Source: an uncultured Candidatus Saccharibacteria bacterium (GTDB lineage: Bacteria > Patescibacteriota > Minisyncoccia > UBA6257 > 2-01-FULL-56-20). From it: a stretch of DNA of 64,000 nt. The notes under the pieces were generated by a model. The model saw only the letters and a program-made list of their open reading frames with translations, did no database searches and was not told where the DNA came from. The stretch's first letter is position 1, and every line of letters begins with the position of its first letter. Shown piece after piece: positions 17,123 through 30,408 of this stretch. Location of the stretch: positions 32,100 to 96,099 of the forward strand of contig CAYIAX010000001.1 in the NCBI GenBank assembly GCA_964361595.1. Reading direction: 5' to 3'. The position numbers were made by a program, and so were the translations under genes.

Positions 17123-19498
17123 TTGATGTTTGCATATATTGCAATTGCAGCGTTGGCAGGCGCAGGGCTGGGTGCCGGACTTTTTGTTTGGTTTGTCGGC
17201 GCGCGCAGGCGCTCGCTCTTTCGGTCGCTGGAGCTCGCCTTATATCTCGTGCGCGTGCCCAAAGAGACGCCGCGCGAAGGCGAGAACCGCGATTTCAAAA
17301 CCGAGGTGAATAAAACGGAGCAGCTCCTGTCGTCGCTCTCCGCTTTGGGCAAGCCGTTCGTCTTGGAAATCGCCGTGCCGCATGTGGGCGAAGAAATTCA
17401 TTTCTATCTGGCCGTGCCGCGCAAATTGTCGGAAGTGGCGATTAAACAGGTGCAGGGCTTGTGGACGAATGCGAGCGTAACGCCGGCCTTGGACGATTAC
17501 AATATCTTCAATCCGCACGGCGCGACCGCCGCGGCCTACCTTACGCAAAAAGAAAATAGCGCTTTGCCGATCCGCACATATGCGGAAATCGGTTCGGACA
17601 CGTTCGCCTCGGTGGCCGGGGCGTTCGCCAAGGTGAATGAAATCGGCGAAGGTGCGGCTTTGCAGCTCTTGGTGCGTCCCGCGCCCAAAAAAATCAAGGA
17701 GCGCCTGCAGAATTATGTCGTGAACTTAAAGCGCGGCCGTACGCTTAAAGATGTGTTCGGCCACGAATTTCCGTTTAAGGCTTCCGAGTTGAGCGAAGTT
17801 TTCAATCCCAAGGATCCCAAGCATGAAAAAGAAGAAAAAGTGGTGGATGAGGATGCCGTGAAAGCGCTTGAGGCAAAAATCTCAAAACCGCTTTTTGAAA
17901 CGAATCTCCGGCTTGTCGCTTCCGCCGCGACGCCTTTCCAGGCGGGGGATATTTTAGAAGGTTTGGCGGCGGGTTTTAGCCAGTTCAGCGCGCCCTTACG
18001 GAACGGCTTCCGCATCGTAAAGCCCAAAAACCCCGAACGCGAAGTTTATGCCTTTAGCTTCCGGAGTTTCGATTCTAGCCACATGCTGCTGTTGAATACA
18101 GAAGAAATTGCAAGCTTTTACCACTTCCCGATTTCCTCCACGGAGACGCCTCGGATCAAATGGTTGAAATCCAAAGAAGCGCCGCCGCCAAGCAACCTGC
18201 CCAATTCCGGAATTCTGATCGGCTATGCGACTTTTCACGGCGACAAGCGGCCCGTTTATATCACCGATGAGGACCGCCGCCGGCATGTTTATGTAATCGG
18301 CCAGACCGGCACGGGCAAAACCACGCTTTTGGCCAACATGCTCATCGAAGACATTAAAAGCGGCAAAGGCGTGGCGATTATCGATCCGCACGGCGAGTTT
18401 GCCGAAAACGCCTTGGGCCACATTCCCAAGGAGCGGGCCGAAGATTTGGTTTATTTCGATCCCGCCGACACCGCGCGGCCCTTGGGACTAAACATGCTCG
18501 ACTATAATTTCGACCGGCCGGAAGAAAAAACTTTTATCGTGAACGAGATGCAGAGCATCTTCAACCGGCTCTTCACGGCCGAGACGATGGGGCCGATGTT
18601 CGAACAGTACATGCGGAACGCGCTCTTGCTGCTCATGGAAGACATGGTGAACGAGCCAGCCACCTTAATCGAGGTGCCGCGGATCTTTACCGACAGCGAA
18701 TTCCGCCGCCGCAAGTTGGAGCGCATCCGGAATCCCGTCGTGATTGATTTCTGGGAGAAGGAAGCCGTGAAGGCAGGCGGAGAAGCTTCTTTGGCCAACA
18801 TGACGCCTTACATCACTTCCAAATTCAATAATTTCATCTCGAACGACTACATGCGGCCGATCATCGGCCAGCCGAAATCGGCTTTCAATTTCCGCGACGT
18901 GATGGACTCGGGAAAAATTTTGATTATCAACTTGGCCAAAGGCCGGATCGGGGACATTAACGCGGGACTTTTGGGCATGATTATGACGGGCAAGCTCCTC
19001 ATGGCCGCCCTCTCGCGCGTGGACATTGCGGACACTTCGAAGCGGCGCGATTTTTATCTTTATATCGATGAGTTCCAGAACTTCACGACCGATTCGATCT
19101 CGACGATTCTCTCCGAAGCCCGCAAGTACCGTTTATCCCTGACTTTGGCTCACCAGTTTATCGCCCAGCTCGAAGAAAAGATCCGCGATTCGGTTTTCGG
19201 CAACGTCGGTTCGCAAATCGTGATGCGCGTGGGCGTGCAGGACGCGGAATTTTTGGTCAAACAATTCGCGCCAATCTTCAATGAGAACGATTTGATCAAT
19301 ATCGACAATTTGAATGCTTATGTAAAGATTTTGATCAACGGCGAAACTTCCAAGCCCTTTAACATCAAAGTTGATACCGCCTCGTGGGCGCCCGGCAACC
19401 GCGAGTTGGCGGAGAAACTCAAAGAATACTGCCGGCTGAAGTACGGCGCCGACCGCGCGACCGTGGAAGACGAAATTTACCAGCGTTTGCGGGTATAA
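17123..19498 (+). CDS. membrane-anchored P-loop ATPase of the VirB4/TraG-VirD4/HerA (AAA_10/DUF87) type
   Basis: 791 aa. N-terminal TM helix. Walker A GQTGTGKTT, IIDPHGEF, Walker B YLYIDEFQNF, LAHQF. This arrangement is typical of conjugative coupling and DNA-translocation ATPases. Confidence 0.5.
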   Translation: MMFAYIAIAALAGAGLGAGLFVWFVGARRRSLFRSLELALYLVRVPKETPREGENRDFKTEVNKTEQLLSSLSALGKPFVLEIAVPHVGEEIHFYLAVPRKLSEVAIKQVQGLWTNASVTPALDDYNIFNPHGATAAAYLTQKENSALPIRTYAEIGSDTFASVAGAFAKVNEIGEGAALQLLVRPAPKKIKERLQNYVVNLKRGRTLKDVFGHEFPFKASELSEVFNPKDPKHEKEEKVVDEDAVKALEAKISKPLFETNLRLVASAATPFQAGDILEGLAAGFSQFSAPLRNGFRIVKPKNPEREVYAFSFRSFDSSHMLLLNTEEIASFYHFPISSTETPRIKWLKSKEAPPPSNLPNSGILIGYATFHGDKRPVYITDEDRRRHVYVIGQTGTGKTTLLANMLIEDIKSGKGVAIIDPHGEFAENALGHIPKERAEDLVYFDPADTARPLGLNMLDYNFDRPEEKTFIVNEMQSIFNRLFTAETMGPMFEQYMRNALLLLMEDMVNEPATLIEVPRIFTDSEFRRRKLERIRNPVVIDFWEKEAVKAGGEASLANMTPYITSKFNNFISNDYMRPIIGQPKSAFNFRDVMDSGKILIINLAKGRIGDINAGLLGMIMTGKLLMAALSRVDIADTSKRRDFYLYIDEFQNFTTDSISTILSEARKYRLSLTLAHQFIAQLEEKIRDSVFGNVGSQIVMRVGVQDAEFLVKQFAPIFNENDLINIDNLNAYVKILINGETSKPFNIKVDTASWAPGNRELAEKLKEYCRLKYGADRATVEDEIYQRLRV

Positions 19499-24988: not shown

Positions 24989-25084
24989 TCTGACAAATAC
25001 TTGTATTCGAATGGGCGCATTTGTAGTGCGCTATTCGCATGCAAAACAAAGGGTTTTTTGTCCACTGATTATGCACATTTGGTG

Positions 25085-25112
25085 TTGACTTGGATCTAGT
25101 AAAGCGTAATAT
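25085..25112 (+). promoter_or_regulatory. sigma70-like promoter TTGACT-N16-TAATAT for the downstream ORF-free RNA
   Basis: TTGACT at 25085-25090, TAATAT at 25107-25112. Confidence 0.5.
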
Positions 25113-25118
25113 CAAAGT

Positions 25119-25820
25119 CAGCGTCAATTGAAAAAACACAATTTGGATGCGTCCGGTGTGAAGAATGATCTGGAGCCAATGAAACCGTCTTTTAGGGAAA
25201 CCTACTGACGGCGGAGGAACCAGCGAATCTGGCCCAGCGTGTTCGCAAGAATGCGTCGGGTCGGAATCGATCTTTAGTCGCGGAGGTGTTCGGAACTTCG
25301 CGGCACGGAGCAGAACGGTTGGCGCAAGCTGGCCGTCTGCAAAAATCACCTTCCATCGTTTAGAGAAGTCTGCGCATGGATTGTTCCTCCAGTAATGGGG
25401 GTTCCTCTGGCAACAGGGGGTAATACTGGCGCAGGATTAGTTGGTGATGTATTTGCACCGGATTCGGCTGGCGAAAGTTGGTCGTTGAACGTGCGAGTTA
25501 CGTCGTCGCTCTTCATCCCTGGGGTGCTGCCCGAGGCGCCCTAAAATAAAAACTGCGGCCAGTTGGCAAACTGGCTCGCAGAAATCTCTTCTATGCGTCC
25601 TGTTCTGGAAAGGGTGAGGCGACATCTCTTTCGCTTTGGGAACCCCCGTTCCCTTAGCGTATACCGGCTGTGCTTTGCGCTCCGCCGGTAAAGACAGCGG
25701 AACTTCGGTTCCGCAGCCGGCTGACGCGGGAGCAATCCTGCGTTATGCGAGGGATGCCCCTCCACCCTGACCGGAATCTTCATTAGTGCCTCTCCGCTTC
25801 GTGCGTCGAGAGGCATTTTT
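25119..25820 (+). ncRNA. candidate ~700-nt structured non-coding RNA of unknown class
   Basis: No ORF of 60 aa or more on the + strand. GC about 58% against about 48% in the flanks. Own promoter and a strong intrinsic terminator (GCCTCTC ... GAGAGGC, then T-tract, at 25788-25827). GNRA-tetraloop hairpins at 25404-25419 and 25726-25741. UUCG hairpin at 25699-25712. Further perfect hairpins at 25558-25577 and 25638-25653. Confidence 0.45.
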
Positions 25821-25827
25821 CTTTTTT
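25788..25827 (+). terminator. intrinsic terminator of the candidate ncRNA
   Basis: 7-bp GC-rich stem GCCTCTC/GAGAGGC followed by ATTTTTCTTTTTT. Confidence 0.75.
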
Positions 25828-25841
25828 GGTATACTTAAAAA

Positions 25842-27083
25842 ATGGACGGCGAGACAAGAAACTGTCAGAACTGTAAAAATATTTTCACGATCGAGCCGGA
25901 AGATTTTTCGTTTTACGAAAAAATCAAAGTCCCGCCGCCGACGTTTTGCTGGCTATGCAGACGGCAACGCCGTTTGGCATGGAGGAATTATCTTAATTAC
26001 TATAAGCGAACCTGCGGCCTAACGAATGAACCGATAATTTCTTTATACGCTCCCGACTCGGGAATTACCGTTTACTCTCCGAAAGCATGGTTTTCGGATG
26101 ACTGGAATGCGCTTGATTATGGTCGTGATTATGATTTTTCGAAACCGTTTTTCGAGCAATATGCCGAACTTCTCCGCAGCGTTCCTAAGCCGGCGATGGA
26201 TAACGATGATGGATTAGCAAGCGTTAATTGTATGTATACGAATGATTTTGCCATGAGCAAAAATTGTTATTTGGTTATTAAAGCCTGGAAGGTTGAGGAT
26301 GTGATGTATTCGTTTTGGGTGGTAAGCGGCCGTGATTTTATGGACGCCCATATAAGTTTTGGCAAGGATGAAGGCAATTACGAAACCGTGAACACAGAAC
26401 ATTGTTATCAATGCCGTTATACTTATGATTCGCGCAGTTGTTCCGATTGCGCTTTTGTTTACGACTGCCGCAATTGCGACCACTGTTTCATGTGCACGGG
26501 ACTGCGCGGAAAATCTTATTATTTCAAGAACAAGGAGGTTGGCAAGGAACAGTACGAAAAGATCATCAAGGAATACTCCCTGCACTCTTATTCGGGAACC
26601 GAGCGGGCAAAGAAAGAATTTGAACCAATCCTAAATAACCATCCGCGTAAAGCTTTGCGCATGGTTAATTGTAAAAATTGTTTCGGTGACCTTGTTTTCA
26701 ATAGTAATAATTGTAAATACTGTTTTGTGGTGTTGGGCAGCGAAAATTACAAATACTGCAATTATGCCGATGGAGCAAAGGATGCCTATGATTCAGATGC
26801 GGGCGGAGGCGGAGAACTCATGTATGAGACCGATTTAAGCGCGTTCTCATCCCGCGTTATCGGCAGTTTTCTTGCCTGGCAGTGCCAAGATTCCTATTAT
26901 CTTACTCACACTTATAGGAGCCGCGATTGTTTCGGTTGTAGCGGCTTAAAAGATGCGCGGTATTGTATCTTGAACAAGCAGTATACTAAAGAAGAATACT
27001 TCGGAGCTTATGCCGAAAATCAGGCGGCACATGGACGAAATGCCCTATGTGAATTCACGGGGCAGGAAACACGCATTTGGTGA
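25842..27083 (+). CDS. cysteine-rich repeat protein with N-terminal C4 zinc-ribbon (paralog 1), leaderless start
   Basis: 413 aa. N-terminal CQNC ... (21 aa) ... CWLC. At least 5 repeats of a roughly 21-aa unit carrying S-x2-C-x2-C-F. Extended -10 box TGgTATACT at 25827-25835 lies 6 nt before the ATG. Confidence 0.6.
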   Translation: MDGETRNCQNCKNIFTIEPEDFSFYEKIKVPPPTFCWLCRRQRRLAWRNYLNYYKRTCGLTNEPIISLYAPDSGITVYSPKAWFSDDWNALDYGRDYDFSKPFFEQYAELLRSVPKPAMDNDDGLASVNCMYTNDFAMSKNCYLVIKAWKVEDVMYSFWVVSGRDFMDAHISFGKDEGNYETVNTEHCYQCRYTYDSRSCSDCAFVYDCRNCDHCFMCTGLRGKSYYFKNKEVGKEQYEKIIKEYSLHSYSGTERAKKEFEPILNNHPRKALRMVNCKNCFGDLVFNSNNCKYCFVVLGSENYKYCNYADGAKDAYDSDAGGGGELMYETDLSAFSSRVIGSFLAWQCQDSYYLTHTYRSRDCFGCSGLKDARYCILNKQYTKEEYFGAYAENQAAHGRNALCEFTGQETRIW

Positions 27084-27537
27084 TTATCCGCCAATCGAGC
27101 TTTCTTATTTTCCCTATAACGATACGGCGGCCCAGTCGCTTTATCCGCTAACGAAAGAGGAAGTCCAGGCGAATAATTTTAAATGGTCCGAACCGAATCG
27201 AGCGGAAGATTTATCAGGTGCAATTCCGGCCGAAGAACTGCCGGACAGCATTTTCGACGTAGGAGACGATATCCTCCAGAAAACGATCATTTCTAAATCA
27301 TCAAACCGAAAATACCGCATTACCCGACAGGAACTGCTTTTTTACCGCAAATATAAAATTCCACTTCCTCGGGAATCTTTTTTCGAGCGGTATGAAAGGC
27401 GAAGTCGTATGGCAACCTCGTTCCGTTTCTATGAAAGAAAAAGTGACAAGTCGGGAGAACCGATCATAACTTATTATCCACCGGAAGCTCCGCAAAAAGT
27501 ATGGAGTATTGATGAATATAAAGCCGAATTTGAATGA
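27040..27537 (+). CDS. hypothetical protein overlapping the 3' end of paralog 1 in the +1 frame (independent gene or frameshifted extension)
   Basis: The frame-1 ORF is open from 27010. It contains FYRKYKIPLP, which resembles the FYEKIKVPPP motif of the paralog N-termini. Confidence 0.3.
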   Translation: MPYVNSRGRKHAFGDYPPIELSYFPYNDTAAQSLYPLTKEEVQANNFKWSEPNRAEDLSGAIPAEELPDSIFDVGDDILQKTIISKSSNRKYRITRQELLFYRKYKIPLPRESFFERYERRSRMATSFRFYERKSDKSGEPIITYYPPEAPQKVWSIDEYKAEFE

Positions 27538-28148
27538 ATATGAACTCCGAAACCAGAAACTGTCAGAACTGTAAAAATATTTTCACGATTGAACCAGAAG
27601 ATTTTTTGTTCTACGAAAAAATCAAAGTCCCGCCGCCGACTTTCTGTCCGCAGTGTCGGATGCAGCGGCGGATGGCATTTCGGAACGAAAGGACGTTATT
27701 CAGGCAAAAGTGCGCTCTGACCGGAAAAGATATTATCAGCTGCTTTTCCCCTGAATCGAAAATGGTGGTTTATGATCGTGATGTTTGGTGGAAAACCGAC
27801 TGGGATCCCTTGACGGTCGGAGTCCAGTACGATTTTAACATCCTATTTTTCCTTCAGTTCAAAAAACTCATGGAACGAACTCCGATGCCGGCTGTATTCA
27901 GCGGCAGATCGGAGAATAGCATCTATGGAAATTATATCAGCGACTTTAAAAATGCCTATTTAGTATCGGCATCGAACCTGCATGTGCAGTTTAGGGGTCG
28001 GGAACCAGGAGCCTGGCACCAGGTACCAGAATACCAGTTTGCACTTTCATGGCGATGCTCCGTGTCCGAATGAATTTGAAACCAGCTATGCGCCGGAACG
28101 CCAGGAGACTGTTTATTGTGAGCAGTGCTACAACGCAGAGATTATTTA
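27534..28148 (+). pseudogene. degraded paralog 2 of the cysteine-rich protein (N-terminal domain in frame 0, homologous C-terminus in frame +1, repeat region deleted)
   Basis: The first 33 aa are 32/33 identical to paralog 1 (nucleotides 27547-27642 against 25852-25947, about 88% identical). Frame 0 stops at 28073. Frame +1 (27964-28148) encodes HGDAPCPNEFETS ... CEQCYNAEII, which is homologous to the paralog-1 C-terminus. Confidence 0.45.
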
Positions 28149-28216
28149 GGAGATTGTAAACCGAATTTATCGGTGATATACTCATTTCTTGCTGTTAAAT
28201 TTAGCAAGCTCTGCTG

Positions 28217-29161
28217 ATGGTATACGACATTTATTTTCATGATGATTTTGACGGGCGCGCTTCGGCGGCGGTGCTTTGGGATTATTTAAAAAAACGGGGA
28301 GACGATATCAAGGGTTTTTATACAGTTGATTATGCGCTCGAACCGCGCTGGCCGAAGTTCAAATTCCCGCGGCCGGCGATTATTGTGGATTTTCTTTACC
28401 ATCCCAAAGCCGCGATGTGGTTCGATCACCATGTGATGCCGTTCCTTTTGCCTGCCTGGAAAAAATCTTTCCGGCGCACGAAAAATATGCATTGGGATTC
28501 GCGCTATGCTTCCTGTTGCCATTTTATTATGGACGAGCTTACGAAGTACCTTGGTTACCGCCCGCCGGTGCATATCCGCGAATTGGCGAAATGGCTAGAC
28601 GTAATTGACGGCGCGAATTACAAGTCGGCCAGGCAAGTGATTGAAATGAAAGAAGCGCCGATTCAGCTCGCGTATTTCATCGAAGGCAGGGGCAAAAAGG
28701 GCGATCCGAAGACGTGGCTCATAAAATTGTTGGCGGAAATGCCTTTAGGGGAGATCGTCAAAGTGCCGCGCGTAGCAAAAACCATAAGCCGGATCCGCAA
28801 AGATCTCACAAGCTCGCTTGCATACTACCGCGCGCATTCCGAAGTAAACGGCAAAACGGTTTTTACCAATGTTACCGAACACACCGGGCTTAAGGTCAGG
28901 TTTGCCCCTTTTTATCTTTTTCCAACTTGCGTTTATAGTCTTACGCTCAAGCGTGAGCGGGGCGGCAATTATCATTTGACTGTGGGCGCAAGCCCCTGGC
29001 GAAGAGAAGAGAATGGATTTCACATCGGCAAATTCATGCATGAGCGTTTCGGCGGCGGGGGACATAAAAACGTCGGCGGCGCTGATATCCAGAGTGGAAA
29101 ACGGGCCTTGGCCATTACACGCGAAATTATAAAATTCTTGCTTAAGCGTTATGGCTGGTAA
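28217..29161 (+). CDS. DHH/DHHA1-family phosphoesterase (NrnA-like nanoRNase / pAp phosphatase)
   Basis: 314 aa. HDDFDG (motif I), FDHH (DHH motif), GGGH in the DHHA1 domain. Confidence 0.6.
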   Translation: MVYDIYFHDDFDGRASAAVLWDYLKKRGDDIKGFYTVDYALEPRWPKFKFPRPAIIVDFLYHPKAAMWFDHHVMPFLLPAWKKSFRRTKNMHWDSRYASCCHFIMDELTKYLGYRPPVHIRELAKWLDVIDGANYKSARQVIEMKEAPIQLAYFIEGRGKKGDPKTWLIKLLAEMPLGEIVKVPRVAKTISRIRKDLTSSLAYYRAHSEVNGKTVFTNVTEHTGLKVRFAPFYLFPTCVYSLTLKRERGGNYHLTVGASPWRREENGFHIGKFMHERFGGGGHKNVGGADIQSGKRALAITREIIKFLLKRYGW

Positions 29162-29756
29162 AAAAAAATTTTATGCGTATTTTGTCCCAGGCAAAGGACA
29201 AGGTATAGCTGATAACTGGGCGGATTGCGAAACCAAAGTGAAAGGCGTGCCGAATGCTCGTTATCGTGCGTTCGGTGATCGGAAAGCCGCGGAAGTTTGG
29301 CTCCACGGAGGAGCCGCTTATGGGAAAAGATCGGCGCCGAAGCTTTTGCCGGGAGTGTATTTCGACGCCGGCACCGGCCGGGGTAAAGGGGTTGAAATTA
29401 AGGTAACGGACGCGCGCGGAGAGAATCTTTTGCCCGTCGTGCTGCGGAGAAAGCAACTTACGCCGTTTGGAACATATGAACTTGCGAATGTTACTAATAA
29501 CTACGGGGAACTTTTTGCTTGCAAAGCGGCGATGCAAATTGCGCTGAAGCAGGAAAGCCGCCGCGTTTTCGGCGACAGCGCCCTCGTTGTGAAATACTGG
29601 TCGCGGGGAGTTTATAAAAAAAATCAGCTGGGCTCGGAAACGATTAAACTGATCAAAGCCACGGCTCGGGTTCGGAAGCAATTTGAAACAAAAAGAGGCA
29701 AATTGGCGCTTATCTCCGGTGGTCATAATCCGGCGGATCTAGGTTTTCACCGCTAA
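29151..29756 (+). CDS. rnhA: ribonuclease HI with N-terminal RNA/DNA hybrid-binding domain
   Basis: 201 aa. N-terminal KKFYAYFVPGKGQGI ... VKGVPNARYRAF ... AEVWL matches the RNase H1 / caulimovirus HBD fold. The catalytic residues are D (YFDAG), E (NNYGELFA) and D (GDS). Confidence 0.7.
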   Translation: MAGKKKFYAYFVPGKGQGIADNWADCETKVKGVPNARYRAFGDRKAAEVWLHGGAAYGKRSAPKLLPGVYFDAGTGRGKGVEIKVTDARGENLLPVVLRRKQLTPFGTYELANVTNNYGELFACKAAMQIALKQESRRVFGDSALVVKYWSRGVYKKNQLGSETIKLIKATARVRKQFETKRGKLALISGGHNPADLGFHR

Positions 29757-29800: not shown

Positions 29801-30408
29801 GGGTACTTCAGGCGATTACTCCCGGCTTAGCCGGGAGAGGAAAGTCGGGACACTCACTGATTTCTTTTAAGAAAGATTAATCCTTAAAAGAGACCGGTCA
29901 AAAAGGTATCCGCTAACGGCGGACCACCGCAAGGTGAAAGGTGCGAACAGAGACGCCGAACATCGAAAGGTGTGAGGCGCCCCCCCCGGTTTATACGAGG
30001 GGGGTGAGCGAAGTTATAAGAAGGGGTCCTCCTTCGCCGCAAGGCTTCGAAGGATCTTCGCGAAGGCTTCGATGAAACGGCAAAATCCTTACCGAGTGCA
30101 AGGCCGTACTCCAGTGCGTAGCACTGGAAATTCGAAATTCGAATATCGAAATTCGAAACAATAAACCGCTTTGGAATTTGTTTCGTGCTTCGGATTTAGA
30201 ACTTCGTGCTTCCAACGCTGCGCATTGGTTTGTGCCGCTTGAGCCTGAGAGCAATCGAGGGCCCAGATAAATGATCGCGCCGGTTTACTCGAGTTTACGA
30301 GAAAGTTGATACCCGCCTTCGTCCTTCGGACTTTGGCGAGGTCTCAATTTACTAGCTCGCTAAGCTCGCAGTAAATTGGACAGAATCCCGCTTACGAAGT
30401 GCCACGAT
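29801..30408 (+). ncRNA. rnpB: RNase P RNA (bacterial type-A-like, expanded to ~608 nt)
   Basis: P1 pairing GGUACUUC / GAAGUGCC. P3 hairpin CCCGGCUUAGCCGGG. P4 5' strand GAGGAAAGUCGGGAC and P4 3' strand ACAGAAUCCCGCUUAC. CR-II/III-like AAGGUGAAAGGUGCG-AACAGAGACGCC. Terminator at 30409-30443. Confidence 0.78.

Follow-up and report, generated by a model that had tools for sequence, protein, structure and literature searches.

The closest described relatives of the proteins considered here are three short curated models, zf_Tbcl (PF13451), zf_Tbcl_2 (PF23477) and TIGR04272, which represent probable treble-clef zinc fingers of unknown function. These models span around 40 residues and carry no functional annotation, whereas the proteins in question have an architecture of around 570 aa, with cysteines at the terminal sites showing the same CxxC-x24-CxxC and CxxC-x17-CxxC spacings. 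Two adjacent genes of this type, termed paralogs 1 and 2, lie within a stretch of 64,000 nt of contig CAYIAX010000001.1 (hereafter the window, in the positions of which all coordinates are given). From the anatomy of the genes and their evolutionary comparison, we consider it very likely that this region holds two neighbouring members of a large and uncurated protein family of Patescibacteria (ultra-small groundwater bacteria), arranged in tandem, and that both copies are damaged.

The family is both large and lineage-specific. A protein search retrieved more than 7,000 relatives at E ≤ 0.001 (90% identity level), and searching 1.84 billion cluster representatives (50% identity) with a profile gave 4,728 matches at E ≤ 1e-3, 2,041 of them at E ≤ 1e-30; among the 150 matches listed, most are full length, at around 520-610 aa, and a few are shorter. 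Almost all of the 80 genome loci that were collected come from Paceibacteria-type Patescibacteria, under the labels Nomurabacteria, Paceibacterota, Minisyncoccia, Liptonbacteria, Staskawiczbacteria, Brennerbacteria and Sungiibacteriota. The initial annotation could not assign these proteins to a known family, which holds true of the curated collections, but with clusters in such numbers they are not orphans. Neither the paralogs nor other family members had a match above threshold in Pfam, NCBIfam, PADLOC (anti-phage defence models) or PHROGs, the last returning only weak matches (E about 1e-3), all to families of unknown function; nor was there a match in the PDB, whether by sequence profile or by a Foldseek comparison of a full AlphaFold2 model. 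A tblastn search of 50,697 phage records gave no match, and scanning metagenome contigs for exact copies of the shared 32-mer, with other strains in view, found none. Literature searches found no description of the ~570-aa family or of the Pfam zinc-finger models. The matches to these models are all below cut-off: paralog 2 scores 16.7 bits against zf_Tbcl (gathering threshold 24 bits), which leaves paralog 1 unmatched, and the C-terminal remnant of paralog 2 scores 18 bits against zf_Tbcl_2 (cut-off 27 bits) and 14.5 bits against TIGR04272 (cut-off 36 bits). Across the family, similarly sub-threshold matches were found in 21 of 41 members for zf_Tbcl and nine of 41 for zf_Tbcl_2.

Four open reading frames (ORFs) cover the two genes on the same strand, at 25842-27083 (413 aa), 27010-27537 (175 aa), 27534-28073 (179 aa) and 27982-28149 (55 aa). 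The first had been taken for an intact protein of 413 aa. On comparison with its orthologues, paralog 1 is instead a gene of 564 codons broken by a frameshift of one nucleotide, with the ORF at 27010-27537 encoding its C terminus. Close relatives are 562-567 aa long and cover only 93% of the 413-aa query; in tblastn alignments, one frame covers residues 1-387 and stops at 26999, residues 384 and beyond fall in the +1 frame, and identity to the orthologue P0003 is 84% over residues 1-392. Both P0003 and a second orthologue, P0002, terminate in ...WSI(D/E)EY(K/R)(A/S)EFE, exactly as the 175-aa ORF does. When one G is deleted at 27003/27004, a reading frame of 564 aa is recovered, the product of which aligns gap-free to P0002 (85% identity) and P0003 (81%); the end of the called ORF, up to 27083, is then an out-of-frame tail of 26 codons. 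The family hidden Markov model scores paralog 1 at 639 + 204 bits. A single extra G divides the gene into the 413-aa and 175-aa ORFs, the break being either recent or tolerated as a two-chain protein. Saturation of synonymous sites between orthologues (pS 0.8-0.9) precluded an estimate of dN/dS, and the proportion of non-synonymous differences (pN) was used alone. Downstream of the frameshift this is 0.114 relative to the orthologue at locus L005, whereas two intact orthologues differ by 0.149; since pN after the break is no higher than between intact genes, the break would be recent, tolerated or artefactual.

The architecture of the family clarifies what each copy has kept. A canonical member of around 575 aa would carry at each end a zinc ribbon of the CxxC-x24-CxxC 'treble-clef' type followed by one of the CxxC-x17-CxxC type, and between these pairs two acidic beta-solenoids, built of 12-residue coils with stacked CxxC pairs and each followed by helices. 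Column statistics place the four Cys4 sites at residues 8/11/36/39, 58/61/79/82, 484/487/512/515 and 534/537/555/558. All 16 cysteines are present in 104 of 166 intact copies; site 1 is complete in 164 of the 166, and site 2 is the most often lost. Both paralogs have the first CxxC-x24-CxxC block followed by a basic CRxQRR helix, as expected of family members. Neither has the other three sites in full. The clade of paralog 1 has a 4-1-0-0 pattern of cysteines over the four sites, with only site 1 kept and the C-terminal zinc sites free of cysteine, and by this pattern paralog 1 is a member of a derived subtype. Paralog 2 is without site 2, as are its nearest relatives, whilst site 3 has been deleted and site 4 is retained out of frame.

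Both of the predicted solenoids, with their cysteine ladders, are present in paralog 1 and deleted in paralog 2. Twelve residues is the top autocorrelation lag in each, with a sub-period of three, and the distances between cysteines are almost exclusively multiples of three (3, 6, 9, 12 and so on) across profile columns 118-380, equivalent to residues 119-380 of paralog 1. The initial annotation had described this region as at least five repeats of a unit of around 21 aa with the motif S-x2-C-x2-C-F. This did not survive: the central region contains eight CxxC motifs, and the strict form S-x2-C-x2-C-[FAV] only twice. Pairs of CxxC cysteines are stacked at a spacing of 12 residues (188/191, 200/203 and 212/215), forming possible inter-coil metal sites. 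We could not match this stacked arrangement to a described fold. The protein is internally duplicated, since its N-terminal finger region has a homologous counterpart in residues 481-535, as residues 105-242 have in residues 258-391. An AlphaFold2 model of P0003, built from 116 sequences, has a predicted local distance difference test (pLDDT) score of 81.6 and a predicted template modelling score of 0.84, with ends of high confidence and two repeat regions at around 60. The protein has basic ends (pI 9-9.8) around an acidic core; no signal peptide, membrane segment or hydrophobic segment was found in family members.

Paralog 2 had been reported to lack the repeat block and to have its homologous C terminus in the +1 frame, both of which we confirmed. 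It matches only positions 1-145 and about 532-575 of the family profile. The conserved C-terminal homology, CMC...HFHGDAPCPNEFETSYAPERQETVYCEQCYNAEII, occupies 27970-28146 in the +1 frame, and by tblastn residues ~532 to the end of relatives map to 27970-28143. Both solenoids, the acidic domain and the third zinc site, some 390 codons in all, are missing, and the junction falls directly after ...KNAYLVSAS and directly before the conserved CMC motif, such that around 45 C-terminal residues of a ~575-aa relative are fused out of frame to residues 1-145. At the 5' end, an ATG at 27534 overlaps the stop codon of paralog 1, and homology favours the ATG at 27540 as the start. Of the two explanations proposed initially, a decaying duplicate or a sequencing frameshift, the first is the one supported: a second assembly is identical at the junction, and the loss of so many codons is incompatible with a simple frameshift. 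A deletion of around 1.2 kb would have joined the first 145 codons to the last ~45; as relatives form arrays, it may have taken in more than one former array member. The product of these events would be a pseudogene, or at most a zinc-ribbon stub of 146 aa.

Same-strand tandem arrays of two to seven copies, often with 0-40 nt between genes, are usual for the family, and the apparent insertions in homologous loci (tblastn spans of over 1.7 kb) proved to be adjacent tandem copies, rather than introns or inteins. The window contains no further fragments of the family, the pair being the only copies there. In arrays from other genomes, pairs of copies were observed in which the N-terminal 99-nt block is 86-96% identical and the next 110 residues 13-49% identical.

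A similar contrast is found between the two paralogs. The near-identical start of the two genes described in the initial annotation was borne out: the 33-aa blocks, ETRNCQNCKNIFTIEPEDF(S/L)FYEKIKVPPPTFC, containing the CxxC-x24-CxxC motif, are identical at 32 of 33 residues and 89 of 99 nucleotides, with nine synonymous changes and one non-synonymous change. The estimate of around 40% identity for the remainder was also accurate, the next 107 aligned codons being 39% identical at the amino acid level and 48% at the nucleotide level. The similarity of the blocks had been attributed to strong purifying selection on the peptide, which accounts for part of it. No other segment of the family is as conserved as the block, in which unrelated members agree at 21-30 of the 33 residues and many columns exceed 95% invariance. 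Were selection on an essential zinc-ribbon peptide the entire cause, with no exchange between copies, the preponderance of synonymous changes (nine of the ten nucleotide differences) would also be explained. However, at codons encoding identical residues, the block has significantly fewer synonymous differences (9/32) than the flanking conserved codons (24/40; Fisher p = 0.009). Furthermore, the closest orthologues of paralog 1, which are 81-85% identical overall, match it at only 24-25 of the 33 residues, whereas its neighbour, 39% identical elsewhere, matches at 32, a level of agreement reached by no other sequence and which includes an Ile at position 11, outside the four commonest residues of the family at that site. 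Relative to these orthologues, pN for paralog 1 is 0.15-0.17 in the block and 0.07-0.08 in the rest of the gene. Over 82 loci, block identity of at least 85% at the nucleotide level was found in 5.6% of within-locus pairs and 0.15% of between-locus pairs, making it around 37-fold commoner within loci. The scarcity of synonymous differences, the lower agreement with orthologues and the within-locus excess all indicate gene conversion between tandem copies, and selection acting alone is unlikely.

The comparison thus points to selection and short-tract gene conversion both contributing to the identity of the N termini; the most constrained segment of the family, together with a short conversion tract, would explain the near-identical 5' ends. 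This resembles the general phenomenon of concerted evolution of tandem paralogs by short-tract gene conversion, in that a short 5' segment is homogenised whilst the remainder stays at 39% identity, and the pattern seen across loci suggests that 5' conversion is recurrent in other arrays. It differs from the usual case in that the tract is only around 100 nt long, is still 10% diverged, and coincides with the most constrained segment, so that the effects of selection and of conversion are confounded. Genomes of Patescibacteria are as a rule small, at about 1 Mb or less. Recurrent 5' conversion, deletions and frameshifts would amount to birth-and-death dynamics inside very small genomes.

A functional role for the frameshift in paralog 1 is about as improbable as selection acting alone. 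Under this explanation, the full protein would be produced by programmed +1 frameshifting, or residues 1-387 would form one chain and a C-terminal domain, re-initiated at Met390, another. The segment downstream of the break is fully conserved, and with the extra G a CGAG becomes GGAG, 3 nt ahead of the native ATG at 27010, from which re-initiation might occur. In other metagenome-assembled genomes (MAGs), around eight of roughly 200 copies are also split by frameshifts, and four of these breakpoints fall within residues 387-445. Nevertheless, the closest orthologues have no frameshift and hence there is no conserved recoding site; to our knowledge, UUC-GGA-G is not a known slippery motif for +1 frameshifting; the spacing between GGAG and the ATG is short; and the break lies inside a helix predicted to span residues 383-399.

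As to what the proteins do, we tentatively suggest that family members are zinc-stabilised rigid rods, the basic terminal zinc fingers of which bind nucleic acid or a protein partner, although we hold this to be possible rather than likely. Co-expressed paralogs would then act together. A different role is raised by the genes surrounding the arrays, amongst which the commonest that is not itself a family member encodes a VirD4/TrwB/TraD-like coupling ATPase. Of 63 informative loci, 26 have it; in 15 it lies immediately beside the array on the same strand, and in some it flanks the array on both sides (loci include L036:1537-3984, L071, L066 and L082). At L036, the ATPase has a C-terminal zf_Tbcl_2 finger scoring above threshold, at 47.5 bits. 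In a survey of Patescibacteria, only 148 of 5,713 coupling-ATPase (T4CP) homologues were found near virB4 (PMC12102498). Most of these homologues lie far from virB4, and the family members, with their basic C-terminal ends and a finger type shared with one such ATPase, might be partners or substrates of these orphan ATPases, rather than free-standing nucleic acid-binding rods. We consider this unlikely. The association is found mainly in MAGs titled Nomurabacteria or Paceibacterota, and no ATPase was seen beside the arrays of several other lineages, although this is an impression that was not tallied systematically; the signal could represent inherited synteny; and the homologue in the window is separated from the pair by 6.3 kb and by genes on the opposite strand.

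The two lesions are probably real mutations. A contig of 8,208 bp from an independent assembly (ENA ERZ1292632; Hainich groundwater well H43, around 3x coverage) has the same three ORFs, and is 99.988% identical to the window with no gaps, both lesions included. The sole difference is a single nucleotide polymorphism (SNP) at 30259, which is G in the window and T in the ENA contig, Hain_H43_01um_R2_5896. The two assemblies are therefore not copies of one another, and the identity of the second at both lesions argues against a sequencing artefact. It is very unlikely that the genes are intact in the organism, with, for instance, paralog 1 affected by an indel error and paralog 2 by a mis-join of tandem paralogs: the lack of relaxed constraint after the frameshift, the retention of every conserved residue in the C-terminal remnant of paralog 2, the low coverage of one assembly and the risk of mis-assembling tandem paralogs would all fit such errors, but assemblies that differ elsewhere agree base for base at both sites, the junction in paralog 2 lies outside any segment common to both paralogs, and split copies are also found in other MAGs.

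Several points weigh against the account given here of a damaged array shaped by conversion and of its putative products. The groundwater site is the same for both assemblies, which may have reads in common, and a systematic assembly error may thus affect both. With ten of its 99 nt differing, the conversion tract does not reflect a recent event, and a single short segment underlies the conversion statistics (p = 0.009). The pLDDT of the modelled solenoid regions is only about 60, and zinc binding is predicted from cysteine patterns alone. As for the putative function, the searches tied these proteins to no curated family, no solved structure and no publication.

The local lesions are ordinary, and the two genes unremarkable in themselves; it is the uncharacterised, lineage-specific family that is of interest. 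It comprises thousands of clusters and can occupy 4-12 kb of tandem array, with no curated model, structure or proposed function. It is quite unlikely, though worth stating, that its members are a new class of protein, in which beta-solenoids of 12-residue coils bear CxxC ladders binding zinc or another metal, are capped by paired zinc fingers, and work with the orphan VirD4-like ATPases abundant in Patescibacteria, for example as translocated substrates or DNA-handling adaptors. If so, a solenoid of 12-residue coils with a metal ladder would add a structural solution of a new kind, and a connection with these ATPases would make an open question in the biology of Patescibacteria accessible to testing.

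Paralog 1 had been described as expressed from a leaderless transcript. This is plausible, since an extended -10 element (TGgTATACT) ends 6 nt 5' of the ATG at 25842 and no Shine-Dalgarno sequence precedes that ATG; the predicted mRNA would be leaderless or nearly so. The orthologue at L001 has the same -10 element, 7 nt before its ATG, and many genes that are first in their array have a -10 hexamer 5-9 nt upstream of the start codon. The pair had also been placed directly downstream of a candidate large non-coding RNA. There is indeed a structured non-coding region of around 830 nt between pgk and paralog 1, at 25000-25830 on the forward strand, with a minimum free energy of -356.7 kcal/mol compared with -288.9 +/- 8.1 for shuffled sequences (z = -8.35). 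It contains many hairpins capped by tetraloops, and its 3' end consists of a hairpin and a T-run. It has no match in Rfam even at E ≤ 1. As the region is not conserved upstream of orthologues, we consider it unrelated to the family, and a link between the structured RNA and these genes was rejected. Upstream of the orthologue at L001 (5066-6000), a tRNA-like sequence was noted by eye (GGTTCAAATCCC...), and the small overlapping ORFs produced there by the gene caller are probably spurious.

On the 3' side of the pair is an ORF of 314 aa (28217-29161, forward strand) in which DHH-like motifs can be recognised by eye (HDDFDG ... GGGH), and which has no Pfam match. It overlaps by 11 nt with a 201-aa gene (29151-29756, forward strand) containing an RNase H1 N-terminal (Cauli_VI) domain.

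Table 1. Positions of the features of the paralog pair in the window, with loci from other genomes that exemplify arrays, split copies and pairs with similar N-terminal blocks.
Feature	Position or locus	Strand	Basis or remark
Coupling-ATPase homologue	17123-19498	+	Upstream of the pair, not adjacent
Promoter-like site: TCGAGA, 18 nt, TG-extended TATACT	25806..25835	+	Predicted from sequence
Paralog 1, residues 1-387, original frame	25842..27002	+	tblastn; orthologue comparison
N-terminal 33-aa zinc-ribbon block, paralog 1	25851..25949	+	Site Zn1 = C8, C11, C36, C39
First cysteine-laddered beta-solenoid (predicted), paralog 1 residues 119-232	26196..26537	+	12-residue coils; CxxC 188, 200, 209, 212, 215
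Second beta-solenoid (predicted), paralog 1 residues 271-380	26652..26981	+	Internal duplication; model; CxxC 277, 291, 363
Paralog 1 frameshift site, one extra G in TTC-GG-AG	27003..27004	+	Alignment of repaired protein; same bases in second assembly
Paralog 1, residues 388-564, +1 frame (listed as ORF 27010-27537)	27004..27537	+	tblastn; orthologue C termini
Paralog 2 N-terminal remnant, equivalent to residues 1-145 of full-length relatives	27540..27965	+	tblastn
N-terminal 33-aa zinc-ribbon block, paralog 2	27549..27647	+	Sequence alignment
Paralog 2 deletion junction, ~390 codons lost, sides out of frame by 1 nt	27966..27969	+	tblastn
Paralog 2 C-terminal remnant, +1 frame, CMC...H-x-H...C...EFETSY...CEQCY, then stop	27970..28149	+	Equivalent to fourth zinc ribbon
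Example arrays (up to 6-7 copies)	L067, L068, L081, L079, L035, L008		
Frameshift-split copies	L053, L056, L061, L067, L017, L037		
Within-array pairs with similar N-terminal blocks	L061 (318/4746), L077 (3989/2082, 169/7404), L032, L066, L075, L080, L008, L044		

Amongst proteins of known structure, the solenoids invite comparison with two groups. The first comprises the left-handed beta-helices of hexapeptide-repeat acyltransferases and gamma-carbonic anhydrases, along with the beta-helix of phage phi29 gp12, to which the proteins described here are 3-8% identical. The hexapeptide-repeat enzymes are built of [LIV]-G-x4 units in coils of 18 residues, whereas the period here is 12; no match to the Hexapep Pfam model was found, and neither trimer-interface nor active-site motifs are evident. 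The second group is that of the insect antifreeze proteins, including the spruce budworm protein (PDB 1m8n), a cysteine-rich beta-helix of small coils with 8% identity to the solenoid protein. The insect proteins are secreted and small, with intra-coil disulfides and an ice-binding face formed by a Thr-x-Thr ladder, whereas the solenoids here lie within a protein of around 570 aa (564 aa in paralog 1) that has no signal peptide and has its cysteines arranged as CxxC pairs, with a spacing of three. Hence the proteins of this family are not members of the antifreeze group, and the likeness implies no functional relationship. A further cysteine-rich beta-helix of this kind is the antifreeze protein of Tenebrio molitor, which is built of 12-residue coils.

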